Translations under genes and position numbers: made by a program
NCBI GenBank assembly: GCA_964572175.1
Contig: CAZNEH010000002.1
Span: forward strand, 1,406-65,405
Length of the DNA: 64,000 bases
Source: an uncultured Gammaproteobacteria bacterium
Lineage (GTDB): Bacteria > Patescibacteriota > Patescibacteriia > UBA9570 > CAZNEH01
Reading direction: 5' to 3'
In this document: one piece after another, positions 10,073-63,560 of the stretch
How positions within the stretch are numbered: the stretch's first letter is position 1
Layout of the letters: each line of letters begins with the position of its first letter
The notes under the pieces: generated by a model
The model's input: the letters and a program-made list of their open reading frames with translations, nothing else
What the model was told of the DNA's origin: nothing
Database searches by the model: none

Positions 10073-13000
10073 ATGGCCCAGAAAACAAAAAAGAACGCAT
10101 TTTACTTATCTAGCGCTGTTTTTATTATATTGCTCAGCGTTTTTTTATTTAATTATCCTCCTCAAGAAACAAAAGCATTAACTACTATTAGCTGTGTTAC
10201 TGATACTGCTGTGAGCTCAGCTAGTTATAACACAAGTCATGACCTAGCTTTTAGTGCCGGAGGAGGAAATAATACCTGTGTTTTAACTGGTGATTTTAGT
10301 GTTAATTCTGTTACAGTGAACCCTAATGTTATTTTAACTCATACCGCTGAAAACGCAGATGGAGTTAGTATTACCACGGTTGATTATTTTACTTTAGATG
10401 TTAATGCATCTATCAATGTAGATGAAAAAGGCTGTAACGGTGAGTCTGATGCTGGTGGTTGGGGTCCTAATGCTTCTAATGTTTGCGCTGAATATGATGC
10501 TGGTTGGGGAGATGGCTCTATAAATGGATGGAATGGTACTCAAGGAGCTGGTCATGGTGGAGCCGGAGGACTAGGAACAGACGCTGCTTATGATGATGGT
10601 GGTCTTACCTATGGGTCTCCTACTGCTCCAATTTTATTTGGTTCTTCTGGTGGTCCAGCCTTTGATGACGGTGGAACCTCTGGTGATGGCGGTGGGTTAA
10701 TTATATTAAATATTGGCGGAACTTTTACTCATGACGGGTCTATCTCAGCTAATGCTGGAAACGGTAGTGGAGCTGAGGGTCCAGATTCTAAAGCTTCTGG
10801 TGGTGGATCTGGTGGATCCATTAATATTACCGCTAACTCCATAACTGGTTCTGGAGACTTTGCTGCAGATGGTGGAAATGGTGGAAATGGTACTGATGAT
10901 GACGCCGGTGGTGGAGGTGGGGGCGTATCGCGGTTAAATATGCTGGTGGTGATTATAGTTTTGATTCTACGGATTTTAGCGTAGCTGGCGGAACTATTAC
11001 TGATGGAGCAACCGCTGGAGACAAGGGAACAGTTTATGTAGAAAATACAACCTCTAATGCTGTTAATATTTATCATGGCTTTACCTATGCTTCAGATTAT
11101 AGTGAAGCATCTTGGACTGTAGATTCTTCCGCAACTAACCAATATTGTAACTATGGTGACCCTGATGAAACTGATGAGGCCACTCCTTCAATTACTGTTA
11201 CCGGAGCTCTTACTTTAACCGGGACTTTTGATTGCTCAGATAGCAATGTTACTAGTTTTGATACCGCCGTTGGTACAAGCATGAGCTTAACCGCTCTTAC
11301 TTTTACTTTAGCGGCCGAAGATGTTTGGACTATGAACGATGCTGTTCCTGCTACTGTAACTTCTTCTTCTGCTATTAACTCTAATGTTGAATGGACAAAT
11401 TTAACCAGTCTTAGTATAGATAGCACTTCTAGTATTAATGCTAATGAAAAAGGATGTGCTAGCGAAGGTGCTTCTTATGGTTACTTCCCAGATACTGATC
11501 CTGGAAATTATAATGTTTGTATAAATGCAGAGCCTGCTGGTAATGGCGGTGGACAAGGTAGTGACGGAGGGTGGATTGGCTCCCAAGGGGCTGGTTTTGG
11601 TGGGGCTGGAGGACTAGGTTCTGACGCAGGTTATAGTAATGGTGGCGTGGTCTATGGCTCTAATACTGCGCCTGATTTATTTGGTTCTGCTGGCGGTCCA
11701 GCTTGGGCTGATGATCCTGGTTCTGGTGATGGCGGTGGATTAATTCGCTTAGATGTTGATGGAACTTTTACTCATAATGGTGCCCTTTCTGTAGATGGTG
11801 GATCTGGTGGAGCAGCTACTAATGCTTCTGGTGGTGGATCTGGTGGGTCAATTTATATTACGGCTAGTGAAATATCAAATGGTGCTGGCTCAGACGGTAC
11901 ATTTTCTGCTGATGGTGGCCCTGGTGGAGATGGTAGTGGAGACGATGGTGGTGGTGGAGGCGGAGGACGAATCTCTGTTAGCGCTGTAGACAGTTTTGAC
12001 AATCTAGGCACTTTAACTGCGGCTGGCGTAGCCACTGGCGGAACTGCCACTGGAACTGCGGCTGCTGGTTCTAACGGTACTCTTTATACTCTTTTTTACA
12101 CTGCTCCAGACCAACCAACTCTTAGTCCTTCAGACTCTGCTCGTAACATGGCCCTAACTAGCTCAGCTTATTCTTCAAATGGTGCTTCCCATACTTCTAC
12201 CGATTGGTATGTTTGTACAGATGGCGCTTGCGATGCTAACAGTCTAGTTTGGTATTCAGAAGACGATGCTTCTAACCTAGAATCAATAACTGTAAATACT
12301 ACTAACGGAACTTTTTCAGGAGACTTAGCTGGTAAAACAAAACTTGCTCCAGCAACTAATCATCAAATAAAAGTTCGCCATACTAATGCCGCTGGTGATT
12401 CTACTTGGAGTGTATTTACTGGTCAAAATACCATTGCTAACAATGTTCCTTCCACTCCTACTAACTCTTCGCCAACAGACGCTGCTACAGATCAATCTAA
12501 AACTCCAACAATTTCTGCCTCTTCATACTCAGACTCAGATTCAGATACTCATACTTACAGCACTTGGAATACTTATGAATCTTCAGACTGTTCAGGAAGT
12601 GAAATTTGGTCTTCTGGATCAGTTGCCGCTAATGAATCTACCACTATTAATGAAGCAAGTGGAGCTTTTTCAGACAGTCACTTAGGTGAGGCAGACTTAA
12701 AAGGACATACCCAATATTCTTGGCAAGTAAGATATGACGATGAATACGATGGTCAATCAAGTTATTCAGCTTGTACCACTTTTACTACTTTAAACACTAC
12801 TCCAGTCGCTAGTGCTGGCTCAGACCAAACAGTTATTGAAGGAACTGACGCTACCTTAACGGCTACTTCTACAGATGATGACTGGAATGACACACCAACT
12901 AACACTTGGATAGAGTCTTTAGACTCTTCAGATGGGTGTACTCTTTCTGGAACAACTGCCACTACCTCAAATAAAGAAACTTCTTACACTTGCCAATTCC

Positions 13001-13878
13001 AAGTTACAGCTGACGATGGATCAAGTGGAGAGGATACAGACACCATGACTTTAACTGTCACCGCAGACAATGATGCTCCTGCTCTAGGTTCCATGGAAAC
13101 AAGTGTTACTATCGATGAAGAAGATACTCTTCTTGCCACCTACACTGCCACAGACGCAGACACTGCTTCTCTAAGTTTTACTGCTTCAAGTTTACCAACA
13201 GGCTCAACTTTAACAGATAACTCTAATAATACTGCTACTTTAACTTGGACCCCAGACTCAACTCAATCAGGAACATACACTTTAACTCTTCAAGTCTCAG
13301 ACGGCACAACTGCAGTCACTCAAAATATTACCATCACTGTAAACGACACAGTCCAAGACGAAGAGGAAGAAGAACCAGTAAACACCATCGAAGACATTGG
13401 TCTAGTCTCTGGCACAGAATCAGGCCCAGGTATTGTCACTTTATACGACAACGACAATGAAGAATTATGTTCAGTTAGAGCTTGGAACGAGGGTGGGTCA
13501 GTTCCATTCGCAGTTCGTTTCCTAGACACTACTTACGTGGCAGTTGTAAAAAATAAAGTAGGCACTACTATTCACCTTTATGATCTAAATTGTAATATTA
13601 TTGAGAAAAAGAGATTATCACCTAAACTACATCCTCGTAACATTGTCACTAGAAACTTCTTAGGTAAAACTACTTCTCAAGAAATAGGTTTAACCTCACG
13701 AAGAGGAAGCACAGTATATGGTAAGATCTTCAGATATAATCCAAACAAAGACAAATGGTACTTACTAAGACAAAAAACATTTAGACCAGTTCCAACTGGA
13801 TATAACCTAAAGAAAACCAAAAAAGGAAATATTCTCATCAAGAAAAACAATAAAACTCTCCACAAGTGGGAGATATAA
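10073..13878 (+). CDS. giant Gly-rich cell-surface protein (paralog of 33699-37490), interrupted by a single-nucleotide frameshift in a G5 tract near 10919-10923; pseudogene, phase-variable gene or sequencing error
   Basis: ORF-track pieces 10073-10984 and 11281-13878 are one gene. Frame B is open from 10921, and its translation GRIAVKYAGGDYSF parallels GRAAIYYNDASGFT in the intact paralog. Total length is 3806 nt, which is 3n-1. Confidence 0.7.
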
Positions 13879-24223: not shown

Positions 24224-27200
24224 GTGAAACAAACAAAAAACAAAAAATTAGCCCATCTTCTTAGCATTATATCTATCGCTGTTATCAGTGTTTTTTTATT
24301 TAGTTCTAGCCCAGTTCAAGCCGCAGTAGTAACTTGGGAGGGAGATGAAAGCGCCTTATGGAGTGTTGGGGGTAATTGGAGTAATGGTAGTGGTGTAGGA
24401 GCCGGAGACATTGCTACTTTTGATGGTACTGGAAATACGGCTTGTACTATTGATGGCACAGCTAGTGTGGCTGGAATTGATATAAACTCAGGTTATACCA
24501 ATACTATTACTCAAGCTGCAGAATTAACGATTGGAAGTTCTCATTTCGACATTGCCTCCGGAACATTTACTGGTGCAACTCAAGATATTACTATAAGTGG
24601 GAACGTGGTTATTGCTGGGGGTATATTTAATAGTACCTCAGGAACAATTAGCTTTTCTGGAGACTGGACTCATACTGCTGGCGGAGAATGGAACGCGTTG
24701 ACAGGAACAGTAAAATTTACTGGTTACAGAGAAACTTTTAATTTTGATTATCCAACCATTGCCACCTCTGGGGTTTTTAATAATTTTACTTACGATAGTA
24801 CAAGTGACTCCGGTTCTTATGTGAGTTTATCAGGAGACACTTTATATATTAATGGTAATGCTCTTTTTTACGATGGCAGATGTTATAATGGTGCAGGCAT
24901 TCAAGTTCAAGGAGATGTTACTATAGGACCCTGGGATGGCTATGATACTACGGACGCTTCTTTAACTTTTTCTGGAACAGGAACTCAAACTTTTGATTTA
25001 ACTGGGTACACAGGTTCTTGGGATGCTCATACAATTATTGGAACTGGTTCAAATTCTCCAACAGTAAACTTAGCTTCAGATTTTATAATAAATAAAAGTA
25101 CCCAAGATTTAACCATTACTAATGGAAGTTTAAATATCGGAGCCTATGAATTAGAAGTGGTAGACGATACAAATATAGCCGGAGGAACCTTAAATGGTGA
25201 CACCGGGACCTTGGATTTGTATGATGTGATCATTACAGATGGAACCCTTAATGGAACGACCGGAGATTTTAATTTTTCCGGAGATTGGACTCATACTGCC
25301 GGCGGAATCTGGAATCACAATAATGGGTTAGTGACATTTGATGGTTATAGAGAGACTTTTAATTCCAATTATCCTACTATTTCTTCTTCTGGAGTTTTTT
25401 ATAATTTGACTATTAATAACTCAGGCGAAACTGGTGGTTATTTTTCTATCTCCACAGGAGATAGTATTTATGTTAATAATGACCTAAATTTTACTAATGG
25501 TAGATTTAATGTTGGTACATCAGTGGTTGTTCAGGGAGACGTTACAGTTGCCTCTACTTGGGATGGTTTTAACAATACAGATGCCGAATTAATTTTTGCT
25601 GGCTCTGATCCTCAAACTTTTGATCTTACTGGCGGTACCGGAACAATAAATTCAAACATTACTATTGGTACAGGATCTTCAACTCCAACTGTTAATTTAG
25701 TCTCAGACTTAATCATGAATTATGGCTCACAAGACTTAACCGTTCTTGCTGGCACTCTAAATGCATCAACTTACGAAATTGAAGTCATCGATGACTTAAC
25801 AGTCTCTGGTGGAGTTCTTAATGCTGCCTCTGCTAATTTAGACTTAGAAGATTTAATTATTACAGATGGAACTTTTAATGCACCCACTGGAACCATGTAT
25901 ATTTCTGGTAACTGGACCCACACTGCTGGTGGAGTGTTTAATAATAATAGTGGGACCGTTATGTGGGACGGTGCTGGTGCTCACACTTGGAATTTTGACA
26001 AAGCTTCATATGCTACTTCTGGTGTATTTAATAATGTTACATTTGATTGTAATGGCACGGGAACCGTATGTGGCGGAGGTTCTAATTATGTGAGCGTGTC
26101 AGCAGGAGACACTATATATCTAGATGGGGATTTAGAAATTCCTGATGGAAGAATACTTGGCTCAACATCAACTATTGAGGTTTCAGGAGATGTTACTATT
26201 GGAGCGAATTGTTATAGTTATGACACTAATGATGCTGATTTAGTTTTTGCAGGTTCATCACCACAAACATTTGATCTGACTGGTGCTGAGGCTTTATTTA
26301 ATTCTGATATATCAATAGGTACTGCAACTTCGACTCCTACAGTTAATTTGGTCTCTAATTTAACCATGGATCTTTGGGATCAAGATTTAGATATTATCGA
26401 AGGAACTTTAAATTTGAACGGATACGATATTGATTTAGATAATCAATCTGCTAATCATATTACCGTTGAAGATGGCGGAGTCTTTGCTTGGAAGGGAACA
26501 GAGACTCTAGCTCTTAATTCTGGAGACCCAATTTTAAATTCAGGAAGTACTGTCCAATATAACCCAACCACTGGAACAGTTAGTACTCAAGATTGGGGCT
26601 ATCATCATTTAGCAGTAGCCTCTACCGGAGGAGCAATTGTTCAACTTGGAACCACTGAAGCACTAGCCGGAGATTTAAGTATTGACTCTGGAACATTTTC
26701 TCTTAATGGCCAGTCCTTATCAGTGACTGGTACATTTAGTAACGATGGAGCCTTACGTTTAATTGGAACAGAAAGTCCATCCTTAACCAATGATACCGAC
26801 AGTGGAGCAATAGAATATATTGGAGACAATGATTCTGGAATAGATAGCTACACCTTAGGTTTTAGCTCTTATTATGGTCTAATTATTAATAGTAGCGATG
26901 GAGCTGATGATACTTTTCAACTAGCCAGTGACACAGATATTGATGGAAGCCTAACTAACACTGCTGGCACCTTGGATGTGACCACCAATAATTATCAAAT
27001 CAATGTCGCTGGTAATTGGGCTAATGGCGGAGGAACATTTAATCCTCGTTCCGGAGCTGTTGTTTTAGACGGTACCAGCCAAGCTATTTCTGGAACTAAT
27101 ACTTTTTATAAATTAACTAAACAAGTTGGCTCTGCAGATACTCTTACTTTACCAGCTAGTACCACTACTACTGTTTCCAATCTTTTAACTTTACAAGGAA

Positions 27201-30163
27201 ATTCTACAGATCAACGCTTATCTTTAGCTAGTTCTACTCCAGACACTCAATTTAATATTGATCCCCAAGGAGTTAGAATATTACACTATTTAAATGTTCA
27301 AGACAGTAACAACGCCAATGCCACTGAGGCAGATTGTAACAAAGGATGTTTAAGCTCAGATAATAATACCAACTGGAGCTTTTACGATATTTCTACTTAC
27401 ACCACTTCTTCTCAGGCTTGGCATTTTACAAGCTCTAGTGATTATACTTATAACTCTTCTTATATAGACATTGCCCTGGATGCTGGGGCTACTTATTCTC
27501 GTTTAAAGGATTTAGGCGGAGCAACTTATCAAGCTGCTAGCCTACCAGGGCTTAGTCATCGCAAACCAATTACTATTACTAATTCCGGATCGTCTTTAAC
27601 TGATCATCAAATTGAACTTTCAATAACTTACGATTTAGACATGCAGGCTGATTTTGATGATCTAAGATTTACCACTTCAGACGGACAAACAGAAATAGAC
27701 TATTGGATTCAAGATTATACCGCTTCTACATCAGCTACTATCTGGGTTGAAGTTCCAACTATCGCCGCCACCCCAACTGATACTACTATTTACATGCATT
27801 ATGGAAACGCAAGTACTTCCACAACTTCAAATATTGATAATACTTTTCTATTTGGAGACGATTTCGATGATGCCTCAGTAGATACAAATAAATGGACCAC
27901 TACCGGAATCTTAGAAGAAACCGGCGGGTCATTATTAATGAATGCTACCGAAGGTGTTTGGGCTACTAATTATATTGTTGAAGACGACTCTATTACTACT
28001 TTTCAAGCTTATATTGATGTTACTGGGACAAAGTCTAATCTAGGATATGTGGAAGAATCTCATCAATTCGAGGATGATTTAGATTCTGGTGAAAAAGGAT
28101 TTGACTTTGGATTCTGGACTTCCACAAGTTTATATTTTGAAAGAGGGGGAAGTACCTATGAAGAGAGCTCAGTAACTTATGGGACTGGCTGGAATGAATA
28201 TACTGCCACTTACCAAGAAGGAACTTCAATTAAATTTGAATACCCTAGTAGTTCTTTTACTGAAGACACCGCTACCTCTGTGGTCGCAGTTTCAGATGCT
28301 CCTCATTTACAAATTTATTCTTTTGATCGAGTTGATTTTAGAGCAGACTATGTATTTGTTAGAAAATATACCTCTAATACTGTGGGCGCATCTTTGGGTT
28401 CAGAAGAAGAAGTTAGTTACGATAATGTACAAATTATTCCTGTTTCAGTTCCAGCCTACGCCAATATAATTTCTTTTACAGAAACTCTAGGAGCCGCTAA
28501 TGCTGGTAGCGTGGCCTATCAACTATCTAAGAATGGAACTAATTGGTACTATCATAATGATTCCTCTTGGACTGCGGTGTCTGTTGATTCTGTGCACAAT
28601 AATACAGCTACAGAAGTAGATAATTTAATCACAAACTTCACCACAGATGTAGGTACAGGAGATTTATATTTTAAAGCTTTCTTAATCTCAAGTGGATCAC
28701 AAAAAGTTGAACTAGATGCCATAACGTTAACTTATAACGCTGTTCCTCAGGAGCCAACTAGTCTATCTCCTTCAACCACTGACATAGCTTTATCAGGTAC
28801 AGCTTCGGCTACTATTAGCGACATGATGGGATCTCACCAGTCCACTTCTTGGAAAATGCAAACTGGTTCAGATTGTTCTGTAGACTCAGGTGTAGCCTTT
28901 TCCTCCTTGGTAGATTCTACTAACAAAACATCTATTACTTATTCAGGTTTAGACTTTAGCACTTCTTATTACTTATGTGTTGCCAATCATAACGAAGGCG
29001 GCCAAGGAGATTGGCAGTCACAGTCATTTACTACTGTAGCTAATCAAGCTCCAACTGCTAGCGCTGGTACAGATATTACTATCTCAGAAGATGATGAATC
29101 TACGGCCCTAGATGGAACTAGCTCTTCAGACCCAGAAAGCCAGGCCTTAACTTATACTTGGTTAGAAACAGTTGACGCCTCAGATGGATGTTCTTTATCT
29201 AGTCCTAGTAGCTCTACTCCAACTGTTACTGTTTTAAATAAAGACACCAGTTTTAATTGTACCTTTTCTTTAGAAGTAGAAGACACTCAAGGTGCTACTT
29301 CTACGGATACAGTTAATCTTTATATCACTGCCGACAACGACGCTCCAGCTTTTGGATCAATTGCCTCTACTCAAAATATAGATGAAGAATCAGTTTTACT
29401 TATTTCCTTTACCTCTTCAGATCCAGATACTTCCTCTTTGACTCTTTCAGCCTCTAATCTTCCAACAGGTTCCACTTTTACAGACAACCTAAATAACACA
29501 GGAACATTTAATTGGTCTCCAGATGGAACGCAGTCTGGAATTTATACTGTTACCTTCCAATTAACTGATGGTGAAAATACTACCACTCAAACCGTAACCA
29601 TCACAGTTAATGATACTGTTCAAGAAGAGGGGGAGGGTGACGAAGAAGAGGAGGAAGAACCAGTTAACACTATCGAAGACATTGGTCTAGTCTCAGGTAC
29701 AGACTCAGGCCCAGGCATTGTCACTCTTTATGGTAATGACAACGAAGAACTATGTTCAGTCCAAGCTTGGAATGAAGGTGGAGCAGTTCCATTTAGAGTC
29801 CGCTTCTTAGACACTAACTATATTGCTGTAGTAAAAAATAAAACAGGTACCACTATCCATCTTTACGATCTAAATTGTAATATTATTGAGAAAAAAAGAT
29901 TATCCCCTAAACTACATCCTCGTAACATTGTCACTAGAAACTTCTTAGGTAAAACTACTTCTCAAGAAATAGGTTTAACCTCACGAAGAGGAAGCACAGT
30001 ATATGGTAAGATCTTCAGATATAATCCAAACAAAGACAAGTGGTACTTACTAAGACAAAAAACATTTAGACCAGTTCCAACTGGATACAACCTAAAGAAA
30101 ACTAAAAAGGGAAATATTCTTCTTAAGAAAAACAACAAAACTCTCCACAAGTGGGAAATCTAG
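24224..30163 (+). CDS. giant secreted surface protein (1979 aa): beta-helix-like tandem repeats, DUF2341/LamG-like region, cadherin-like (ADNDAP) domains, shared C-terminal module
   Basis: Signal peptide. Three tandem repeats of about 230 aa ([10 protein letters not shown]...GYRETFN). C-terminal 170 aa nearly identical to the other two giant proteins. Confidence 0.8.
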
Positions 30164-31283: not shown

Positions 31284-31317
31284 AAAAAAAGAGGGAACTC
31301 GGGTAAGTGATTCCCTC
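31284..31317 (-). terminator. intrinsic terminator of the island C gene (minus strand)
   Basis: Minus strand reads AGAGGGAA-loop-TTCCCTC then TTTTTTT. The loop is the 14-nt inverted-repeat sequence. Confidence 0.6.
31297..31310. repeat. left arm of a perfect 14-bp inverted repeat (ACTCGGGTAAGTGA) flanking island C
   Basis: Exact reverse complement of 31858-31871. Confidence 0.8.
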
Positions 31318-31838
31318 TAGGTGTTGATGAGGTGGTCCAGAAAGGCTTCGAATGCCGCCGGGTCTCGGTCCGCGTAGAGCGTCTGCTCTCCGTGGACAAA
31401 GGACAGGTGCGGAATTTCCAGTAGCTTCTGGGCCAGGTTCTCGCGGGTCAGGACTTGGGCTTCTCCCCAGACCCCTTCCGCCAGGTAGTTCTCGTGGGTG
31501 ACATTCGGAGCCGCTGCTTGAACTTCCATCCCTCCGAGGTCTTGCTTCAGGCGGGCCAGTTCAGCGTTGTACTCCATCTCGAAGGCCACGCCAGGGTTGC
31601 GTCCTTGCAGAAGGACTTGGTCTCCGTTGAACGTCACCTTGTACTTGGGTACGACCATCAGAGCGCACTGCAGACCCATGCCCTTGGCCAGGTCTTGGCA
31701 GTCCTTAGGGTCTCGTCGGCACTCGGAAGAGCACCGGTTGTTGCAGCCAGGGTCAGGATCCTTGAACACGCCAGTCATCTCGTTTCCGATCCGACCGGCT
31801 TGGTTGAGGAAGTAGACCGTGCAGATAAAAAGTTGCAT
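31317..31838 (-). CDS. hypothetical protein, Cys-rich N-terminus (CNNRCSSECRRDPKDC); GC-rich island C
   Basis: About 60% GC. GGGGGA SD before the ATG. No recognisable family. Confidence 0.5.
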   Translation of the reverse strand: MQLFICTVYFLNQAGRIGNEMTGVFKDPDPGCNNRCSSECRRDPKDCQDLAKGMGLQCALMVVPKYKVTFNGDQVLLQGRNPGVAFEMEYNAELARLKQDLGGMEVQAAAPNVTHENYLAEGVWGEAQVLTRENLAQKLLEIPHLSFVHGEQTLYADRDPAAFEAFLDHLINT

Positions 31839-31857
31839 GTTTCCCCCTTCGGGGGAG

Positions 31858-31871
31858 TCACTTACCCGAGT
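31858..31871. repeat. right arm of the 14-bp inverted repeat (TCACTTACCCGAGT) flanking island C
   Basis: Lies immediately 5' of the island C gene, beside the TCCCCCTTCGGGGGAG hairpin. Confidence 0.8.
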
Positions 31872-33637: not shown

Positions 33638-33686
33638 TGCTATAATATAAGTATGAAACAAATTAAGGACAACCCTAGGGTTGTCC
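33638..33686 (+). promoter_or_regulatory. extended -10 promoter TGCTATAAT plus a 20-nt perfect palindrome GGACAACCCTAGGGTTGTCC in the leader of the giant protein gene
   Basis: Palindrome at 33667-33686, which is 12 nt before the ATG at 33699. Confidence 0.4.
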
Positions 33687-33698
33687 ATACATATTATT

Positions 33699-36600
33699 AT
33701 GGCTCAAAAAACAAAAAAGAAGGCATTTTACTTATCTAGCGCGGTTATTATTGCAATAATCAGCATTTTTTTATTTAATTACCCCCCTCAATCAGTAAAT
33801 GCAGCCGATGAATCAGTTTCTTGTAATTCTACCACCCTAGATCAAACCGCTTTAGATGCTTTAGCTGGAGATGCTGTTACTTTTACTGACGGTGGAGACG
33901 GTATTTGTATTTTTACTGGAACTTTAGGCGCTGCTTCTGTTACTGTTAACGCTGATGTTACTTTAACTCACAATGCTGAGGATGAAGATGGATTAAGTAT
34001 TACCACTGCAGATTATTTTCTCTTAAATGGAAACATAGACGTTGAGGGAAAAGGTTGTTCTGGCGGAGAAAATGGAAGCACTGATGGTCATGGTCCAGAC
34101 ACATCTACCGGGGTTTGTGCTCAAACTACTAGTGGTTATGGTAAGAGTGGTGATAGTGGAGGGGCACATGCTGGCTCTGGTGGCGAAGGACATTATGGTG
34201 GGGCAGTTCAATTAACAACTTATGGAGACTCCAACAATTCCTCTTTACTCGGATCTGGAGGTGGAGCTACCAGTAATCCAAATACTTATGGTGGAAATGG
34301 CGGCGGATTAATTGCTTTAACAATAGGAGGAACTTTAACTGTAAACGGTAGTATAAATGCTGATGGGCAAGATGGTTATGGAACAGCGAATCGTGGTGGC
34401 GGAGGATCTGGGGGTTCAATTAAAGTGACAACTACTACCTTAGCTGGGTCTGGGGCAATTTCTGTTGATGGAGGTAATGGTAATACAAATTACTCTGGTG
34501 GCGGTGGTGCAGGCAGGGCTGCAATTTATTATAATGATGCTAGCGGCTTTACTTTAACTAATATTACTGCTGCTAAAGGTTTAAAATCTTCTGGAACTAC
34601 TGGTAATGCCGAAGATGGAACCGTTGGTTCAATTTTTATCTTAGATCAAGATTCTGACATCTTAACTACTACTACTGGCTTAGAGCTGCAAGACGGGGAT
34701 GATTACACTAAATCCGAAATTACTTTTTTAGATGGTGCTCAAATCTGGTGTGATAGCTTTGCCACTCTTAATATCGGAGCCACTGGTACCTTAGCAATGG
34801 ATGATAATACCTGGACTTGTGACAGTGTTGATACTATAAATATGTCTGCTGGCACTTGGACCACATCTGGAACCAGTACCATGAGCTTTAATAAAGCAGG
34901 TAGTCAGGTAGATTGGGATATTTCTAATAATCTTACTTTAAATAACCTAACTTATAATGGAGGATATGCCGGAATCACTAGTGCTAGTGGCGGGCTTTTA
35001 ACTTTAGATAACCCCATTGATATTAATTTAGTAAATACAGATATTATTTCTAGTGTAGACTTGGACGCTACTAATCTAACTCTAGATGCTAGCTCATCTG
35101 TTAGCGCCAAAGGAACAGGTTGTGCCGGTGGAATAACTAGCAGTACCAATGGTTATGGACCCAATACCTCCACAGGAATTTGTACTCAAGGAGAAAGTGG
35201 TTATGGTAAAGGAAATGATGGAGGAGGGGCGCATGCTGGTGCTGGCGGTCGAGGAAATTATGGTGACGCTACCCAGTTAACAACCTATGGCAGTGCTGAT
35301 AATCCATCTTTATTTGGTTCAGGTGGAGGATCTAATGCTAATCCAAATAATTATGGCGGATATGGAGGAGGAAAAGTTTTTATTGATGTTACTGATACTT
35401 TGTCTGTAGCTGGAGATATAAATGCTGACGGACAAGATGGTTATGGTTCTGGTAGTCGTAGTGGCGGAGGCTCTGGAGGGGCTTTAAAAATTACTACTGG
35501 AACTTTATCTGGAGCTGGAACAATTTCTGTTGATGGTGGCAATGGTAATACAGATTACTCTGGTGGAGCCGGTGGCGGCCGAGCTTATGTTGGCTATGCT
35601 GTTAATGATTCATTTAATCTTTCTAATATTACTTCCACCAAAGGTTTAAAATCTTCTGGAACTCCTGGTAGTGCAGTTGATGGAGGCGATGGCTCTGTTT
35701 CTACCCTTGCTTACACCGCTCCAACACAACCAACTCTTAGTCCTTCAGACACATCTCGTAACATGGCCCTAACCAGCTCAGCTTATTCTTCAAATGGTGC
35801 TTCTCATACTTCTACTGATTGGTATGTTTGTACTGATGCTGCTTGTGATGCTAGTAGCCTAGTCTGGTACTCTGAAGATGATGCTTCTAACTTAGAAGCA
35901 GTAACTGTAAATACAACTAATGGAACTTTTGCCGGCACCTTGGCTGGTGAAACAAAGCTTGCTCCAGCAACTAGTCATCAAATAAAAGTTCGCCATACCA
36001 ACGCTGCTGGTGATTCTACTTGGAGTAGCTTTACCGGTCAAAGCACTCAAGCTAATAATGTTCCAAGTGCTCCTACTAATGTAGCTCCTGCAGATGCTAC
36101 CACTGACCAATCTAAAACTCCAACCCTAACTTCTTCTATATACTCAGATTCAGACTCAGATGATCATGGAGATTCTACTTGGGAAATATATGAATCTTCA
36201 GATTGTACTGGAGATAAAGCCTGGAGATCATTAGATGACTCTTCTAATTTAGAATCAATTGATACTTCTGCCGCTGGAACCTTTCTTGATGACTATGCTA
36301 CTCCAGGAGAATTAAAAGGGCACACTGAATATTCTTGGAAAGCTAGGCACGACGATGAATATTCTGGTCAATCTTCAGACTCATCTTGTACAAAATTTAC
36401 TACCTTAAACACCACTCCAACTGCCAATGCAGGCGCAGATCAAACCGCTACTGAAGGAGACGACGTAACCCTAAGCGGGTCATCTACAGATTTAGACTGG
36501 AACGACACAGTTACTGAAACTTGGATTGAATCACTTGATTCTTCAGATGCTTGTACTCTTTCTGGAACAACGGCCACTACTTCAGATAAAGAAACATCTT

Positions 36601-37490
36601 ACACTTGCCAATTCCAAGTTACAGCTGACGACGGTCAAGGTACTACAGATACCGACACTATGACTTTAACTGTCACTGCCGATAACGACGCTCCAACTAT
36701 GGGCACTCTGGCAGACGTTGTTGTAGATGAAGAACAAGCTCTTCTTATTGCCATTTCTTCTGCCGACACAGACTCATCTTCTTTAACTCTTTCAGCATCA
36801 ACCTTACCAACTGGCGCAGTCTTTACCGATAACGAAGACACCACTGGAAACATGCAATGGACTCCAACCTCAGATCAATCAGGAGCCTATGCTGTTACCT
36901 TCAGTGTTTCAGACGGCACAACTGCAGTCACTCAAAATATTACCATCACTGTAAACGACACAGTCCAAGACGAAGAGGAAGAAGAACCAGTTAACACTAT
37001 TGAAGACATTGGCTTAGTTTCTGGAACAGAATCAGGTCCTGGTATTGTCACTCTTTACGACAATGACAACGTAGAGCTATGCTCAGTTAGAGCTTGGAAC
37101 GAAGGTGGGTCAGTTCCATTCGCAGTTCGCTTCTTAGACACTACTTATGTGGCAGTTGTAAAAAATAAAGTAGGCACCACTATTCACCTTTACGATCTAA
37201 ATTGTAATATTATCGAGAAAAAAAGATTATCCCCCAAACTACATCCTCGTAACATTGTCACTAGAAACTTCTTAGGTAAAACTACTTCTCAAGAAATAGG
37301 TTTAACCTCACGAAGAGGAAGCACAGTATATGGTAAGATCTTCAGATATAATCCAAACAAAGACAAATGGTACTTACTAAGACAAAAAACATTTAGACCA
37401 GTTCCAACTGGATATAACCTAAAGAAAACCAAAAAAGGAAATATTCTCATCAAGAAAAACAATAAAACTCTCCACAAGTGGGAGATATAG
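33699..37490 (+). CDS. giant Gly-rich cell-surface protein (1263 aa), intact paralog of 10073-13878
   Basis: MAQKTKKK signal anchor, Gly-rich repeats, cadherin-like domains, shared C-terminal module. The ORF-track start at 33681 is TTG inside the leader palindrome. Confidence 0.8.
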   Translation: MAQKTKKKAFYLSSAVIIAIISIFLFNYPPQSVNAADESVSCNSTTLDQTALDALAGDAVTFTDGGDGICIFTGTLGAASVTVNADVTLTHNAEDEDGLSITTADYFLLNGNIDVEGKGCSGGENGSTDGHGPDTSTGVCAQTTSGYGKSGDSGGAHAGSGGEGHYGGAVQLTTYGDSNNSSLLGSGGGATSNPNTYGGNGGGLIALTIGGTLTVNGSINADGQDGYGTANRGGGGSGGSIKVTTTTLAGSGAISVDGGNGNTNYSGGGGAGRAAIYYNDASGFTLTNITAAKGLKSSGTTGNAEDGTVGSIFILDQDSDILTTTTGLELQDGDDYTKSEITFLDGAQIWCDSFATLNIGATGTLAMDDNTWTCDSVDTINMSAGTWTTSGTSTMSFNKAGSQVDWDISNNLTLNNLTYNGGYAGITSASGGLLTLDNPIDINLVNTDIISSVDLDATNLTLDASSSVSAKGTGCAGGITSSTNGYGPNTSTGICTQGESGYGKGNDGGGAHAGAGGRGNYGDATQLTTYGSADNPSLFGSGGGSNANPNNYGGYGGGKVFIDVTDTLSVAGDINADGQDGYGSGSRSGGGSGGALKITTGTLSGAGTISVDGGNGNTDYSGGAGGGRAYVGYAVNDSFNLSNITSTKGLKSSGTPGSAVDGGDGSVSTLAYTAPTQPTLSPSDTSRNMALTSSAYSSNGASHTSTDWYVCTDAACDASSLVWYSEDDASNLEAVTVNTTNGTFAGTLAGETKLAPATSHQIKVRHTNAAGDSTWSSFTGQSTQANNVPSAPTNVAPADATTDQSKTPTLTSSIYSDSDSDDHGDSTWEIYESSDCTGDKAWRSLDDSSNLESIDTSAAGTFLDDYATPGELKGHTEYSWKARHDDEYSGQSSDSSCTKFTTLNTTPTANAGADQTATEGDDVTLSGSSTDLDWNDTVTETWIESLDSSDACTLSGTTATTSDKETSYTCQFQVTADDGQGTTDTDTMTLTVTADNDAPTMGTLADVVVDEEQALLIAISSADTDSSSLTLSASTLPTGAVFTDNEDTTGNMQWTPTSDQSGAYAVTFSVSDGTTAVTQNITITVNDTVQDEEEEEPVNTIEDIGLVSGTESGPGIVTLYDNDNVELCSVRAWNEGGSVPFAVRFLDTTYVAVVKNKVGTTIHLYDLNCNIIEKKRLSPKLHPRNIVTRNFLGKTTSQEIGLTSRRGSTVYGKIFRYNPNKDKWYLLRQKTFRPVPTGYNLKKTKKGNILIKKNNKTLHKWEI

Positions 37491-40393: not shown

Positions 40394-40422
40394 TTGACGT
40401 TCGGCTTTTGTTCGGTTATGAT
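40394..40422 (+). promoter_or_regulatory. recA promoter TTGACG-N17-TATGAT with an embedded candidate SOS box GTTCGGCTTTTGTTCGG (GTTC-N7-GTTC)
   Basis: 15 of 17 positions identical to the lexA box, in the same position between -35 and -10. Confidence 0.55.
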
Positions 40423-40457
40423 GTACACAGAGTTAGTTCCCTCTTAATAATTAGTAA

Positions 40458-40477
40458 AGACGCGATTAATCGCGTCT
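40458..40477 (+). promoter_or_regulatory. 20-nt perfect palindrome AGACGCGATTAATCGCGTCT in the recA 5' UTR
   Basis: Same core as the recA terminator. Lies 9 nt upstream of the ATG, with no SD between. Confidence 0.5.
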
Positions 40478-40486
40478 CAACAAAAA

Positions 40487-41494
40487 ATGAGTAAAACAAA
40501 ACAAGACTCCCGCGGTAAGGCCGCTCAAGAGGCTATCGACCAAATTAAAGAAAAATTTGGCGAAGGTTCTATTATGAAGCTGGGCGAGGCTAAGCAAATG
40601 AAAGTAGAATCAGTTCCTACTGGTTGCCTATCCTTAGACTTAGCCCTAGGAATAGGTGGCGTCCCTCGAGGTAGGATTATTGAAATCTATGGGCCAGAAT
40701 CTTCTGGTAAAACTACCTTGTCTCAACACATTGTCGCCGAGGTTCAAAAACTAGGTGGCACCGCTGCCTTCATAGATGCTGAGCATGCCCTAGATCCAGA
40801 CTACGCAGCTAACATTGGAGTGGACACTAAAAACTTACTTATTTCTCAGCCAGATACTGGGGAACAAGCTTTAGAAATTTTAGAAACTTTAGTTCGTTCT
40901 AACGGGGTAGACGTAATCGTTGTTGATTCCGTGGCTGCTCTTACTCCTAGAGCTGAAATAGAAGGGGACATGGGTGCTTCACACATGGGTCTACAAGCTC
41001 GTTTAATGAGTCAAGCATTAAGAAAATTAGCTGGGATAGTGTCTAAAACAAATACCTCTATCATTTTTATTAATCAGATTAGAATGAAGATTGGAGTCAT
41101 GTTTGGTAATCCGGAAACAACTACTGGTGGAAATGCTTTAAAGTTTTATTCCTCAGTACGTATCGAAGTTCGCAGAGCCGCTCAAATTAAAAAAGGAGAC
41201 CAAATCATTGGTAACCGAACCAAGGCTAAAGTAGTAAAAAATAAAGTTGCTGCTCCTTTTAGAACTACTGAGTTCGACATCATGTATAACGAAGGAATTT
41301 CTATTGCTGGCGACATGCTAGACACAGGCGTCCAATTTGGAGTTATTAATAAATCAGGTAATACCTACACCTATAAAGATAAAAAATTAGGAGTAGGTCG
41401 AGAAAATTCTAAAACTACTTTAAAAGCAGATAAAAAACTATTAGAAGCAGTTCGTAAAGAAGTTATAGAAGTAGTTGAAAAAGCAGAAGAATAG
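40487..41494 (+). CDS. recA: recombinase RecA
   Basis: GPESSGKTT Walker A, L1/L2 loops, full length. Confidence 0.97.
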
Positions 41495-42344: not shown

Positions 42345-44271
<1,927 letters not shown>

Positions 44272-44305
44272 AAGTAAATAAAAATTAATTATTTTTTGTT
44301 AACTA

Positions 44306-44349
44306 ATTTTAACAAAAAATAGGCTACCTGTCAAGCTCTTAAAAGAGCT
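44306..44349 (-). promoter_or_regulatory. groES promoter (minus strand TTGACA-N17-TAAAAT) abutted by the 16-nt palindrome AGCTCTTAAAAGAGCT; not a canonical CIRCE
   Basis: On plus coordinates the -35 is 44329-44334, the -10 is 44306-44311, and the palindrome is 44334-44349. Confidence 0.45.
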
Positions 44350-44365
44350 AATTTTAGCCAATTAT

Positions 44366-44394
44366 TTGACATATTAACCTGGTCTTAGTAAGAT
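44366..44394 (+). promoter_or_regulatory. near-consensus promoter TTGACA-N17-TAAGAT for the island D gene
   Basis: Back-to-back with the groES promoter. Same TAAGAT -10 as island A. Confidence 0.5.
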
Positions 44395-44422
44395 AAAAAT
44401 GACTTCTACCAAGGAGAAAGTC

Positions 44423-45199
44423 ATGTCGACTCAAGCTCTCTTCGATCACACTGGTCGCCTCATCCCTCCTCCCAACCCTCGGTCCGGGTACGGGGTCTGT
44501 GATCCCGATCCCGAGTTCCACCTGATCCAGCCAGATATCGACTACTCAGTTCGATTAGCCCGAGCCATGGGGCTCTTGCCCGATGGCCTCGTCTGGCCTT
44601 CCGCAGCACAGTTCGCAGATGCCTGTCAGGCCCAGCTGGAGAGGCTGGGCCAAGATGAGCAGGCTCGCAACGCTCTCCACGGCGTGCACCTTCCGTTCTG
44701 CCTGCCGCAGATAGATGTTCACAACATGGGAGGCGTTCTGGACGAGGTCTTCCTGCCAGCTCTGGAGCAGGCCCTGGTGCCCCACCGCCGCTTTCGCAAT
44801 TCTCGCCAGGGCGATCTGGCCAAGATGGTTTCTACCTTCAGGGGTAGCCGCCATATTGACCTGGTCAAGAGACTGGCTCAAGAACCGATCATCGGGACCT
44901 GCTTCCCTGTCGCCCTGCAGGGGTTCTCGTCCAACGCCGCCAGAAGGCAGATCAAGGAAGTGCCTTCCAGCTGGATCCTCAGCGGGTTCGATCTGATCAT
45001 GGCCATGATTATGTACCCCGAGGTCTTTGGCAAGGGCATCAAGGTTCCGGCCATGTGGCCCCTGGCGTTCCTCGGAAAAGAAAGGGGGTACTCCTTCGAA
45101 GTCTGCACCTTCGATCCCCGCTACATCAGCTTCGGGATCATGGCCACTCACTTCTACGCCGGAAAGGCATGTTCCTCCGGACTGTCCTTCCTCGGGTAG
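44423..45199 (+). CDS. hypothetical protein (258 aa); GC-rich island D
   Basis: About 60% GC. AAGGAG SD 6 nt before the ATG at 44423. The ORF-track start at 44399 abuts the -10. No recognisable domain. Confidence 0.5.
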   Translation: MSTQALFDHTGRLIPPPNPRSGYGVCDPDPEFHLIQPDIDYSVRLARAMGLLPDGLVWPSAAQFADACQAQLERLGQDEQARNALHGVHLPFCLPQIDVHNMGGVLDEVFLPALEQALVPHRRFRNSRQGDLAKMVSTFRGSRHIDLVKRLAQEPIIGTCFPVALQGFSSNAARRQIKEVPSSWILSGFDLIMAMIMYPEVFGKGIKVPAMWPLAFLGKERGYSFEVCTFDPRYISFGIMATHFYAGKACSSGLSFLG

Positions 45200-45202
45200 G
45201 AC

Positions 45203-45245
45203 GCAGGTGCTTTAGCTCACGGGCTATCGCACCTCGCTTTTTTTT
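45203..45245 (+). terminator. intrinsic terminator of the island D gene
   Basis: GCAGGTGC...GCACCTCGC stem followed by TTTTTTTT. It contains the stop codon of the convergent gene. Confidence 0.6.
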
Positions 45246-46450
45246 ACTAAAGTTGCCAGTAGCAACCAAAATATTAAGATAAAAGGGAAAGTTGTCCATA
45301 AGTAATGGTCAAATAATCCCATAAATAATAGCATTAACAGTAATATGCCCAGAGTAATAGTCCTTAGCTCTAACCTAGTATGCAATTTTTTTATCCAGTA
45401 ATAAATAGCATATCCCGCAATCATTAAAAAAGACAACAAACCAAATATTCCCAGTTCTGCTAAAATTAAAACATAAATATTATGAACTGGCTCACTAAAG
45501 TGCTCACTATAAGTACCTAGACCAATTCCAATCGGCCAGTACTTAGCTATAATACCTCCAGCCTCAACTTGTTGCTCCATTCTTTGTTCTACAGAGTAAA
45601 GTTCTAAACTTTGATCCATGTCAAATCGCGTCATCATTATCTGTGGGTAGATTAAAGAAAGAATAATAATCTTAATAAAAATTGCTCCAATTAATTTAGT
45701 TACTATTTTTCTGGGTCGATACAAAACCAAAAGTAACAACAATCCAAAACATAGTCCCAGCCAAGCTTGCCTAGAGAAAGTTAAGAAAAATCCAGTGGTT
45801 AAAAATATTAAGCTAGCTAAAGGAGCGTAGCGTTCTCTAATGTGATGCTTAATTCGACGCTCTTCAACTAAGTATAAATAAATTGCTAAAAACATTGCTA
45901 CCAATAAAAACATTCCTAAAATATTTGGATGGGGAAATGTTCCATAAGCCCTTAAGACTCTACCAAAATCTCCAGCTACTACTTGAGTACCTAAAACTTC
46001 TGGCAAATGCTCAGTCATACCCAGCCATTTACAAGCCCAAGTTTTTTGGAACCAAAATTGGACTATTCCTAAAATAGATTGAAGGACTCCAGCTACCACC
46101 CAAATCCAAGCCATTTTTTTAAAATCTAATTTAGTTCTTAAAATAATATAAGCAAGTAACAATCCTTCAGTTAAATGCAATAAATTATAACCAGACAACT
46201 CTTTATTGCTAGACCAGTATAAATTAAAAAAATTAACTACCCAGAAAAAACCCAACAGAGTTAAAAGAGCAGTATTTTTTGTTTCTTGTTTTTTGTTTAT
46301 TAAAAAGAAAATTAATAAAACAATAAAAATAATATCTAATCCATACAAAGAATAGATGCTATCTTCAAAGATATACCTCGTAGAAAAGGGGAGTAAAAAA
46401 ACCAGTAAATAAATTAGGTATTCAGGAGCTTTCTTAATGTGTTTTTTCAT
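45224..46450 (-). CDS. O-antigen ligase / Wzy_C family polytopic membrane protein; last 6 codons and stop are encoded by the island D terminator
   Basis: More than 10 TM helices and a Wzy_C-like loop. Start at MKKHIKK (46450). Confidence 0.6.
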   Translation of the reverse strand: MKKHIKKAPEYLIYLLVFLLPFSTRYIFEDSIYSLYGLDIIFIVLLIFFLINKKQETKNTALLTLLGFFWVVNFFNLYWSSNKELSGYNLLHLTEGLLLAYIILRTKLDFKKMAWIWVVAGVLQSILGIVQFWFQKTWACKWLGMTEHLPEVLGTQVVAGDFGRVLRAYGTFPHPNILGMFLLVAMFLAIYLYLVEERRIKHHIRERYAPLASLIFLTTGFFLTFSRQAWLGLCFGLLLLLVLYRPRKIVTKLIGAIFIKIIILSLIYPQIMMTRFDMDQSLELYSVEQRMEQQVEAGGIIAKYWPIGIGLGTYSEHFSEPVHNIYVLILAELGIFGLLSFLMIAGYAIYYWIKKLHTRLELRTITLGILLLMLLFMGLFDHYLWTTFPFILIFWLLLATLVKKSEVR

Positions 46451-58786: not shown

Positions 58787-59107
58787 GTGAAATTGCAGAA
58801 ACCATTCCATCAAGGTCAACAACCGCCCACTCGTCAAGCCTTTGATCGCGATCGTCTCCTGGAGGTCCGTCGATATCCAGGACGCATCATCGTAGACGTT
58901 GCCTTCCTCACTGACATCGAATCACTCGGCGAGGTCAGGGTCACGTTCAATGGCTGTCAGTGCCAAGCCTGGCTCGAACAGTCCAGAGACTGGAAAGGAC
59001 AAAGCACTCTCTCTGTCCATCTTCTGGTCATCTCCACTCCCGGAGAACACAACATCACCATCGAGCCGGAGAACTACCACGGCATCGAGGTCATCACGCG
59101 GGGATAG
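58787..59107 (+). CDS. hypothetical protein (106 aa); GC-rich island E. Start is GTG at 58787 or TTG at 58793
   Basis: About 58% GC. GAGAGG SD overlaps the GTG, so TTG has better spacing. No recognisable domain. Confidence 0.4.
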   Translation: MKLQKPFHQGQQPPTRQAFDRDRLLEVRRYPGRIIVDVAFLTDIESLGEVRVTFNGCQCQAWLEQSRDWKGQSTLSVHLLVISTPGEHNITIEPENYHGIEVITRG

Positions 59108-62376: not shown

Positions 62377-62826
62377 CTACTGCTCTTCAGCCGCATCTGG
62401 ATAGAGCATGGCGTCGACTTCTTCCTGAGAGGGGTCACCGAGCTCTTCTTCCCATCGAAGCAGGGTGAGGTGCTGTTGCAGATCTCGCTGCTCCTCAGGC
62501 GAGAGCTCAGGCAGGATGTTCTCTCCTTCCTCTAGGATGCTCTCTCGACACACGGGGCAGAGTTGGCAGTGCAGGAGCACGGCCATGGGGACCAGAGTTC
62601 CTTCCGGAGGAACTTCTAGGAATTCTTCCATCATTGCTCCCAGCATCTCCTCCTCGACCAGGTCGCAGCTCGCAGGGTTGCCCAGGTTCATGATCTGCAT
62701 GGCCCTGGCCGCTCCTTCTTCAGCCGCTTCTGCCTCTTCGATCAGGGCGACCAGCTTGTCTTCTTCCATCTTGCCGTCGAAGGCAGTGCGCAGGAACTCA
62801 GACAGGGACTGACGGTTGTCAGACAT
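62377..62826 (-). CDS. acidic ACP-like protein Z (149 aa) with an H-x3-C-x2-C motif; GC-rich island F
   Basis: NLGNPASCDLVEEEMLGAMMEEFLEVP parallels ACP helix II ([22 protein letters not shown]). AGGAGG SD 5 nt before the ATG at 62826. The ORF-track GTG at 62844 lies inside the leader. Confidence 0.4.
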   Translation of the reverse strand: MSDNRQSLSEFLRTAFDGKMEEDKLVALIEEAEAAEEGAARAMQIMNLGNPASCDLVEEEMLGAMMEEFLEVPPEGTLVPMAVLLHCQLCPVCRESILEEGENILPELSPEEQRDLQQHLTLLRWEEELGDPSQEEVDAMLYPDAAEEQ

Positions 62827-62929
62827 GGGTACCTCCTGTACCACTTGAGATTCATTTTTAGCCTATCATGGCCAAAAAAAAGAGGCAAGGCCGCGAAAGT
62901 CCACTAGGGTCTCTCGCAAAACCTTGCTC
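62827..62929 (-). promoter_or_regulatory. leader/promoter repeat R1 (about 100 nt) upstream of gene Z; near-identical to R2
   Basis: Shares about 90% identity with 63457-63560, including the SD and nested hairpins (GCAAGG...CCTTGC). Confidence 0.6.
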
Positions 62930-62949: not shown

Positions 62950-63456
62950 CTACTCCTTGTTGGGAGCCAGGGCTACGACCCAGGCGATGAACTCTCCGAC
63001 CGTAGTGACTTGTCTCAGGGCGTTCGCCGCTGCCTCGTTGATCTCGAAGCCCAGCTCGGTGCGGCAGGCTACGCCTGCTTTGGCCAGCCCCTTAGGACAG
63101 ACATCCAGATCATCTCCTTCTCCCTCTCCTGTCAGGAGTCGATCGTCGTCTGTCAGGGCAGCGGAGTTGACGTCCCAGACCCGGCACATGATCCCCTTGA
63201 TGTGGTCTTTCAGGATCAGGGGCATGATCCAGTCGAGCCACTCTCCAGGTGTGGCCGGGTCATCCTCTCGGCCCTCATCCAGCTCGAGCTCCAGTTCGCT
63301 CTCGACGTCGTAGGAGATGTCGTCGAAGTCTCCTTCGAAGTCATCGAGCAGGGAATCGAGATTCGTGTCCTCAGTGAACTCGTCGCTGTCGTCGATCAGG
63401 CTGTGGGCGATTGCGTGCTGACGCAGGATCTCCAGACACTCTTCGCGGCTCTTCAT
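62950..63456 (-). CDS. acidic ACP-like protein Y (168 aa): ACP helices I-II (DTNLDSL) and III-IV (ELGFEINEAAANALRQVTTVGEFIAWV) split by an insertion of about 90 aa
   Basis: DSL Ser motif. The C-terminus matches the ACP helix III-IV consensus. GGAGG SD 6 nt before the ATG. Confidence 0.4.
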   Translation of the reverse strand: MKSREECLEILRQHAIAHSLIDDSDEFTEDTNLDSLLDDFEGDFDDISYDVESELELELDEGREDDPATPGEWLDWIMPLILKDHIKGIMCRVWDVNSAALTDDDRLLTGEGEGDDLDVCPKGLAKAGVACRTELGFEINEAAANALRQVTTVGEFIAWVVALAPNKE

Positions 63457-63560
63457 GGGGTACCTCCGTACCGTTTGGAATTCATTTTTACCCTATCATG
63501 GCCAAAAAAAAGAGGCAAGGCCGCGAAAGTCCACTTGGGGTCTCTCGCAAAACCTTGCTC
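63457..63560 (-). promoter_or_regulatory. leader/promoter repeat R2 upstream of gene Y
   Basis: Duplicate of R1. Confidence 0.6.

Follow-up and report, generated by a model that had tools for sequence, protein, structure and literature searches.

The DNA analysed here is a stretch of 64,000 nucleotides (hereafter the window) from an uncultured bacterium of the Patescibacteria (GenBank assembly GCA_964572175.1, contig CAZNEH010000002.1), and the element under study is island D, a GC-rich block which lies between the chaperonin genes groES and groEL on one side and a convergent gene for a Wzy_C or O-antigen-ligase-like membrane protein (hereafter the ligase) on the other (Table 1). The window was found to contain about 36% GC, interrupted by several sharply bounded blocks at about 58-60% GC, which are termed islands A to F. 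The step at island D was abrupt, with a GC fraction of about 0.28-0.40 before position 44420, 0.57-0.68 within the block and 0.33 past 45230, and the compositional break was found to coincide exactly with one open reading frame (ORF) and the hairpin behind it. The ORF has a GC content of 0.60 and a third-position GC content (GC3) of 0.73, against a GC3 of 0.16-0.36 in 37 host ORFs, and its codon preferences run opposite to those of the host (ATC 0.79 against 0.12; AAG 0.86 against 0.24). An upstream in-frame ATG at 44399 gives rise to the 266-aa form of the protein found in public collections.

The promoter-like sites of island D and groES were the top two of 13 promoter-like matches in 2.8 kb, against 5.9 +/- 2.1 in shuffled sequences. 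The island D start codon is preceded by a Shine-Dalgarno (SD) sequence, and the ORF is followed by a hairpin which, taken with the adjoining U8, has a predicted free energy of -21 kcal/mol (z = -4.25) that was equalled by none of 200 shuffles. The hairpin had been missed by a simple terminator scan because its stem is branched; a stable GC-rich hairpin directly before a U-tract is present, and the element is predicted to be an intrinsic terminator. An earlier reading made from the sequence alone (hereafter the sequence-only reading) had reported the back-to-back promoters, the SD and the terminator, and all of them were found in place. To judge from these signals, the island D gene would be transcribed alone from a sigma-70-like promoter, with an SD-led start and an end at the terminator. 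That reading had also taken the -10 hexamer TAAGAT as a sign linking islands A and D, and this did not hold, since the same hexamer is present in the groES promoter of an island-free relative (L004, described below) and six TTGnnn-N16-18-TAAGAT sites were found in the window.

The ligase was found to have 482 homologs, annotated as Patescibacteria (Kerfeldbacteria, Parcubacteria and others), with which it shares invariant R/H/P/G columns, and it has a multi-pass membrane architecture. Its gene spells V-K-K-S-E-V-R-stop over 45247-45224 (gta aaa aaa agc gag gtg cga TAG; protein end FILIFWLLLATLVKKSEVR), where the Lys-Lys codons are the T-run, the S-E-V-R codons are the 3' arm of the hairpin and the TAG at 45224-45226 lies in the inner stem. 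The ligase of an island-free relative (L056; SRR22388294) ends in GIFYYKK-stop (FILIFWLILGIFYYKK), with the codons tat aaa aaa TAA, and not in KKSEVR, the ending that the sequence-only reading had named as refuting evidence if seen in an island-free ortholog. The sequence-only reading had assigned the whole KKSEVR-stop to terminator sequence; this was correct for SEVR and the stop, which are absent from L056, and incorrect for the Lys-Lys pair, which is ancestral. Its broader claim, that the insertion replaced the native 3' end of the ligase gene, was borne out, the L056 stop TAA being placed right after the Lys-Lys codons and the stop TAG of the window in the GC-rich hairpin. By this comparison the Lys-Lys codons and most of the T8 run are ancestral host sequence, so that the predicted terminator of island D is composite, with a foreign stem and a host homopolymer. 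A join inside a homopolymer makes a microhomology-mediated event a reasonable inference. The tail of the ligase after the FWLxLG motif, four codons longer in the window, fits the family range of about 4-19 residues. The hairpin has no T-run on the minus strand, and transcription of the ligase is therefore predicted to run on antisense through island D.

The same site was found to be empty in relatives. In L056, whose ligase is 82% identical over 271 aa and whose GroES falls in the same 90% cluster as that of the window, the ligase gene is followed by a 137-nt spacer (837-973) with TTGACG-N16-TAAAAT and then by groES, with no island. In L004 and L005 (ligase ortholog P0003, 53% identical) the order is ligase, a 172-nt spacer, groES and groEL, likewise with no island, and the L004 spacer (7089-7260) contains TTGACG-N16-TAAGAT together with an operator like CIRCE (controlling inverted repeat of chaperone expression). 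A scan of genome contigs with the ligase returned only a 30%-identical relative. The empty sites in L056 and in L004 and L005 favour, by parsimony, a gain of the island in the lineage of the window. The junction, called recent in the sequence-only reading, is plausibly so in view of the unameliorated GC3 and the absence of the gene from the 82%-identical relative.

An assembly chimera, in which high-GC reads of another organism were joined into a contig of the candidate phyla radiation (CPR), would fit the metagenomic source of the assembly and the very sharp compositional breaks. It is scarcely credible, as a contig from a different assembler (Logan contig L001; SRR8146440, 4129 nt) was found to be 100% identical over groEL, groES, island D and the ligase with both junctions included, the junctions lie at functional signals, the ligase ORF crosses its junction to an in-frame stop, and six islands, as well as other samples (L012, L013), show the same layout.

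On the left side of island D the GC rise was found at 44418-44423. The AT-rich segment 44272-44422 gave a weak alignment with the L056 spacer (z = 3.4 for the whole segment, 1.5-2.4 for its parts). In one alignment the island D SD is the reverse complement of the host CTCCTT beside the old groES -35, and in an alternative one the groES promoter stays in place and about 37 nt including CIRCE are deleted; the left boundary would be placed somewhere within 44336-44422. The CIRCE operator (TTAGCACTC-N9-GAGTGCTAA) was absent from the window at up to three mismatches, and among the island-free relatives it was perfect in L056 and had one mismatch in L004. Its loss at the groES of the window suggests an altered regulation of the chaperonin genes. 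The palindrome AGCTCTTAAAAGAGCT between the divergent promoters is possibly a CIRCE remnant or another operator, and a perfect 13-nt inverted repeat (44290-44302 and 44309-44321) was found to bracket the groES -10 box.

No integrase or transposase gene was found at island D and no tRNA anywhere in the window, and the flanks share just one repeat, a direct one of 10 nt that is AT-rich and estimated to be at chance level. The transposon, miniature inverted-repeat transposable element and integron-cassette models were rejected, as neither terminal inverted repeats nor a target duplication were found, and tRNA-targeted integration was rejected in the tRNA-less window. When viral contigs were scanned with the D family and islands A, B and C, no match was obtained, which leaves a phage-moron origin unsupported.

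The scans of the island D protein against Pfam, PHROGs and PADLOC returned no family, and a sequence profile search of the PDB returned noise only (E = 0.55). A word-indexed search had found the protein itself and one 35%-identical match, and the orphan status that this implied proved to be a sensitivity artefact: phmmer against 1.84 billion cluster representatives gave 410 proteins at the cut-off of E<=1e-3, of which 21 were at <=1e-30 and none contained a Pfam domain. Members from Rhodocyclales, Sulfuricellaceae and Legionellales were added by a profile search. The nearest homologs (P0272, P0273 and P0002) are located on short Logan contigs, where the gene forms an island of 60-70% GC in DNA of 35-48% GC.

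The relatives were found to be linked to diversity-generating retroelements (DGRs). In L012 the last ~110 nt of the gene are repeated 460 nt downstream, and 17 of 17 differences lie at adenines of the downstream copy, so that the two copies read as a textbook pair of variable region (VR) and template repeat (TR). A metagenome scan yielded 42 further D-family loci. A TR was present 300-500 nt past the stop in 20 loci (L012 included), with nearly all mismatches at TR adenines, and all 20 contained homologs of the reverse transcriptase (RT) and/or of bAvd, the accessory variability determinant; both were present in 19, and L012, a short contig, had Avd only. About half of the family loci had no adjacent TR even with 6-kb flanks, and among the TR-less loci an RT match was found in L041 only. 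L029 and L014 contained RVT_1 and bAvd by Pfam, with the RT motifs LPIGNLTSQ and YADDF. The flanks of the CPR-type cassettes are chromosomal, with gyrA, rpsA and nusA, and rpmA was also found beside CPR-clade members. By these features the TR-bearing loci can be assigned to CPR-type DGR cassettes, whose targets have been described as lacking recognisable domains (PMC8144416; PMC5758913). The sequence-only reading had reported a 258-aa protein of unknown function at about 60% GC; the ORF and its composition were upheld, and the unknown function gave way to a place in a DGR-variable-protein family.

Many relatives were found to contain GC-rich hairpins downstream of the stop, some followed by a T-run. 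A conserved 5' leader was also found in the D family, consisting of CCNGGGCCNCGGGNAGNGGCAAA and then a second hairpin which ends beside the SD (L002 20-85, L012 875-945, L013 599-670, L029 5138-5205, L030 5922-5995 and seven other loci). RNAalifold gave two helices for this leader, in which 6 of 12 pairs show compensatory changes; it has no Rfam match and is possibly a cis-regulatory RNA that serves the target genes of CPR DGRs. The leader was not found in the window, and known RNA families gave no match at the island D locus or in the leaders of the relatives.

The GC3 of the D-family gene was above that of the flanking ORFs in 32 of the 33 loci with usable flanks (L012-L055), with a mean excess of 0.21 that persists even beside RT and Avd genes of host-like composition. 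On the sense strand, adenine at the third position (A3) was below thymine (T3) in 33 of 33 genes. The two biases hint at a compositional drive intrinsic to the family, and would fit an island D that is native and ancestral, was lost in the relatives and owes its high GC to selection or gene-specific mutational bias. This origin is very improbable, as the spacer of two independent relatives is compact, contains CIRCE and shows nothing of the gene, the ligase stop is overwritten, and five other unrelated islands of the window have the same third-position composition.

The island D protein aligns with its DGR-linked relatives from residue ~4 to the last residue at 30-46% identity. It has no counterpart of their 40-85-aa N-terminal extension, and since short forms occur elsewhere in the family it is not called truncated. 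In a neighbour-joining tree it was placed in the DGR-type superclade and not in the proteobacterial one, on a long basal branch. Its 3' nucleotides TTCCTCGGGTAG, which resemble an initiation of mutagenic homing (IMH) sequence, are common to most family members, and the 12-mer occurs once in the window. Island D diverges right after the stop, where TGC.GG... 'cttgg' repeats are common to the relatives, together with a hairpin; this conserved downstream segment is missing and the hairpin comes 4 nt past the stop. No TR-like copy of the 3' end was found at >=58% identity on either strand of the 64 kb, so that an IMH/IMH* pair cannot be defined for island D. A tblastn search of the window with the RT and bAvd of L029 and L014 returned nothing below E = 0.89, and neither a radical-SAM partner nor a paralog of island D was present in the window.

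An AlphaFold (AF2) model of the protein on 58 sequences (predicted local distance difference test, pLDDT, 91.9; predicted template modelling score, pTM, 0.91) has an alpha/beta core and, after it, a beta-meander at the C-terminus that matches the VR. The PDB is expected to include solved structures of DGR variable proteins, Mtd and TvpA among them. Foldseek of the model against the PDB and BFVD returned nothing at E<0.9, and no C-type-lectin similarity was detectable. The remote homology search and structure prediction proposed in the sequence-only reading thus gave a family and a high-confidence model, with no fold match. Among the hallmarks of a DGR target, island D has homology to proteins whose C-terminal VR pairs with an adenine-mismatched TR; a VR/TR pair of its own, an RT and an Avd were not found within the window, and a C-type-lectin or Ig-like fold was not detected in its model.

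Island D may instead be an active remote DGR target, rewritten at 45083-45196 by a TR-Avd-RT cassette elsewhere in the genome, in which case the hairpin would promote retrohoming rather than, or besides, terminating transcription. The IMH-like conserved 3' end with a GC-rich inverted repeat 4 nt past the stop agrees with such a role, as do the TR-less half of the family loci and the non-adjacent and remote targets documented for other DGRs (PMC5758913). We consider it unlikely: TR, RT and Avd were absent from the 64 kb, CPR DGRs are reported to have mostly a single adjacent target, with remote ones confined to another lineage (PMC5758913), the downstream 'cttgg' region of the family is lacking, and the two assemblies are identical and unbroken through the VR-equivalent region.

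The proteobacterial members (L006-L011; Rhodocyclales, Legionellales and other Proteobacteria) were found, in the three neighbourhoods examined, directly after a radical-SAM/SPASM gene, in clusters that contain C-methyltransferases, NUDIX, epimerases, GT2, GtrA, NeuB, a B12-radical-SAM enzyme and sugar methyltransferases. The arrangement looks like an uncharacterised glycan-modification module. As island D abuts an O-antigen-ligase-like gene, it could have been kept for a glycan-related role with its neighbour, as an accessory enzyme or binding protein in the modification of envelope polysaccharides. This role is doubtful, with little probability, in view of the missing radical-SAM partner, the CPR-clade members that lie beside gyrA, rpsA, nusA and rpmA instead of glycan genes, the ligase genes of relatives that have no such neighbour, and the convergent orientation, which precludes co-transcription.

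The reading preferred here, to which a probability of about 0.7 was given, is that island D is a horizontally acquired, stand-alone homolog of DGR targets which was inserted beside groES in a Patescibacteria chromosome. A single gene was put in reverse orientation into the short spacer between ligase and groES, the foreign segment being approximately the ORF plus the GC-rich hairpin, from about 44418/44423 to 45237. The right end joins the host within the A-run that coded the terminal Lys-Lys of the ligase, by which the ligase TAA was lost and the ORF now runs four codons (SEVR) into the hairpin, and the host homopolymer would supply the U-tract that makes the hairpin an intrinsic terminator for the island D gene. 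In the relatives the last ~35-40 residues are rewritten by adenine-specific mutagenic retrohoming from the TR near the bAvd and RT genes; as no TR, RT or Avd is present in the 64 kb, island D is most likely now a fixed, non-diversifying copy. By analogy with other variable proteins, its product is probably a cytoplasmic ligand-binding protein with the C-terminal beta-region as binding surface.

Several points count against this interpretation. With the weak alignment of 44272-44422 with the spacer of the relative, the promoter and SD may have come either from the host or with the gene. No donor was found; the identity of the nearest homologs is only 38-46%, and given its long basal branch island D need not descend from an active DGR target. 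The cognate TR and RT could lie elsewhere in the genome, the contig itself being about 4.7 kb longer than the window. With no match in the fold search, the ligand-binding role rests on analogy, and six islands with one codon usage suggest a further process.

Comparison with known systems was found to give partial likenesses. With the CPR-type DGR targets ('clade 2' of Roux et al. 2021, PMC8144416; 'unknown VR' classes UVR1-6 of Wu et al. 2018, PMC5758913) island D shares homology over all 258 aa, a C-terminus that aligns with the VR, the 3' end TTCCTCGGGTAG, a GC-rich inverted repeat past the stop, and the lack of a signal peptide or known domain. It differs from them in having no nearby TR, bAvd or RT, no N-terminal extension, no two-hairpin 5' leader and no 3' 'cttgg' region, and in its long basal branch; no named UVR class or protein cluster could be matched to the D family. 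Bordetella phage BPP-1 Mtd with its IMH and cruciform (Guo et al. 2011, PMC3240598) likewise has a C-terminal variable region, a conserved GC-rich end and a GC-rich inverted repeat, whereas island D has no detectable C-type-lectin fold and its hairpin, with a U-tract, resembles an ordinary intrinsic terminator. The horizontally acquired single-gene islets of Patescibacteria (genomic islands and genes transferred one by one; PMC12455944) are alike in deviant composition, absence from the site in close relatives and a product of unknown function. Island D is unlike them in having no integrase, tRNA, direct repeats or transposase, in a unit that is exactly ORF plus hairpin, in SD-led translation in a mostly SD-less host, and in being one of six units with one codon usage within 64 kb. 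The proteobacterial homologs paired with radical-SAM/SPASM genes belong to the same family and have the same short form of ~260 aa, but their composition matches the host (gene against flanks 0.55 and 0.53, 0.45 and 0.42, 0.37 and 0.39), their C-terminal consensus is another one (..ASGLVVLG), and they have no DGR features.

Table 1. Features of island D, its flanks and the other GC-rich islands of the window
Feature	Position	Strand	Remarks
groEL (host)	42345-43988	-	comes after groES
groES (host)	43996-44271	-	ORF; Cpn10 in L001, L004 and L056
groES promoter-like site, TTGACA-N17-TAAAAT	44306-44334	-	11/12; divergent, back-to-back with the island D promoter; no CIRCE after it
16-nt palindrome	44334-44349		between the divergent promoters; abuts the groES -35; aligns weakly with the L056 CIRCE
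Island D promoter-like site, TTGACA-N17-TAAGAT	44366-44394	+	candidate; TTGACA 44366-44371, TAAGAT 44389-44394; consensus scan 10/12
Shine-Dalgarno AAGGAG	44412-44417	+	5 nt ahead of the island D ATG; read from sequence
Island D GC-rich block	44420-45237		one ORF inside
Island D ORF, 258 aa	44423-45199	+	ATG 44423, TAG 45197-45199; short form within the DGR-variable-protein family; without a Pfam family
VR-equivalent region	45083-45199	+	in relatives the VR/TR pairs fall in the final ~110 nt of the gene; ends in the IMH-like TTCCTCGGGTAG
Island D terminator stem	45203-45237	+	GC-rich branched hairpin; in the position of the GC-rich inverted repeat after the IMH in DGR targets
T8 run	45238-45245	+	U-tract of the terminator; minus strand is the ligase Lys-Lys codons; right junction within or at the run
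S-E-V-R codons and TAG	45224-45238	-	AGC GAG GTG CGA TAG; GC-rich; extension of the ligase ORF that came with the inserted hairpin; not present in L056 or L004
Wzy_C / O-antigen-ligase-like membrane protein gene (host), 408 aa	45224-46450	-	Pfam PF04932, 5.1e-14
Island A	698-1723		PNP_UDP_1-like product
Island B	4020-4943		transmembrane and coiled-coil protein; singleton in a collection of 15 billion proteins
Island C	31317-31838		no family; singleton in the same collection
Island E	58787-59107		no family
Island F	62300 to beyond 64000		acidic proteins and acyl carrier proteins (ACPs)

At least five further islands were found in the window, with a GC3 of 0.62-0.75, with C at 0.32-0.46, G at 0.20-0.35 and A and T mostly below 0.2 at the third position, as in island D, and codon preferences that are the reverse of those of the host. 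Each contains a promoter-like site and a strong SD, and ends with a hairpin and a T-run. A canonical SD and a longer 5' untranslated region (UTR) are present in all eight island genes, whereas most host genes (starts e.g. 5307, 22738, 46450 and 62280) have no SD; several host genes have a TATAAT box 6-7 nt ahead of the ATG and look leaderless by sequence. No co-occurrence of the other island proteins with D-family loci was found by tblastn over all loci.

The islands are shaped like transcripts, from a 5' UTR or start codon through the terminator hairpin to the U-tract, and the host A-run at the right junction of island D could base-pair with a U-tract. A more speculative account, to which only a small chance was given, is that single-gene islands arise when an RT inserts mRNAs, foreign or processed, with host A/T homopolymers as priming sites, and with DGR activity or linked selection driving the adenine depletion and GC enrichment of whole target genes. 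If true, such islands together with the target-gene bias would amount to a retro-gene acquisition route in ultra-small bacteria.

Island C was found to be bracketed by a 19-nt, 95%-complementary inverted repeat, at 31297-31315 in the 5' UTR and at 31853-31871 in the terminator loop, which could be terminal inverted repeats or a pairing of the 5' and 3' ends of the mRNA; an equivalent was not found at island D. Island F contains an intergenic module of ~86-105 nt that is repeated at 62824-62929 and 63454-63560, with a large hairpin and T8 followed by a promoter-like site and GGAGG. Past the window end (L057) island F continues with two more ACP-like genes, which are followed in turn by an AT-rich Y1_Tnp gene (IS200/RAYT-like), another single-gene island of 65-68% GC and the host ychF.

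Elsewhere in the window a ~45-nt hairpin repeat (CCCTCTCCACGAAGGTGGAGAGGG) with a G-rich tail, similar to repetitive extragenic palindromes, was found at six intergenic positions (2902, 13969, 15252, 15327, 37501 and 53235), and it may be a substrate of the Y1 transposase-like gene just outside the window. Three very large ORFs (10073-13878, 24224-30163 and 33681-37490) share long repeats of 63-87% identity (e.g. 13246-13656, 29531-29941 and 36858-37268) and Gly-rich units, and are probably paralogous surface proteins. A leader hairpin (AGTAAAGACGCGATTAATCGCGTCT) was present at ~40440-40486, before an unrelated gene (40487-41494), and in L004 at ~7225-7260, before groES. The promoter TTGACGTTCGG(t/c)TT(c/t)TGTTCGG occurs twice in the window, at 2861-2833 and 40394-40422.

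At island D a junction of horizontal gene transfer in an uncultivated Patescibacteria genome was resolved to near base level on one side, where a foreign hairpin and the host Lys-Lys A-run jointly form a predicted terminator, and a membrane protein has been lengthened by four codons as the price. An apparent ORFan is now tied to the variable-protein family of CPR DGRs, and this target family gains a high-confidence model, a two-hairpin 5' leader, and a near-universal GC3 excess with an A3 deficit. What remains new is the recurrence of single-gene islands and the compositional anomaly of the whole family. That islands of like codon usage recur suggests that genes were taken up repeatedly from a single pool, which bears on how streamlined episymbionts acquire genes.

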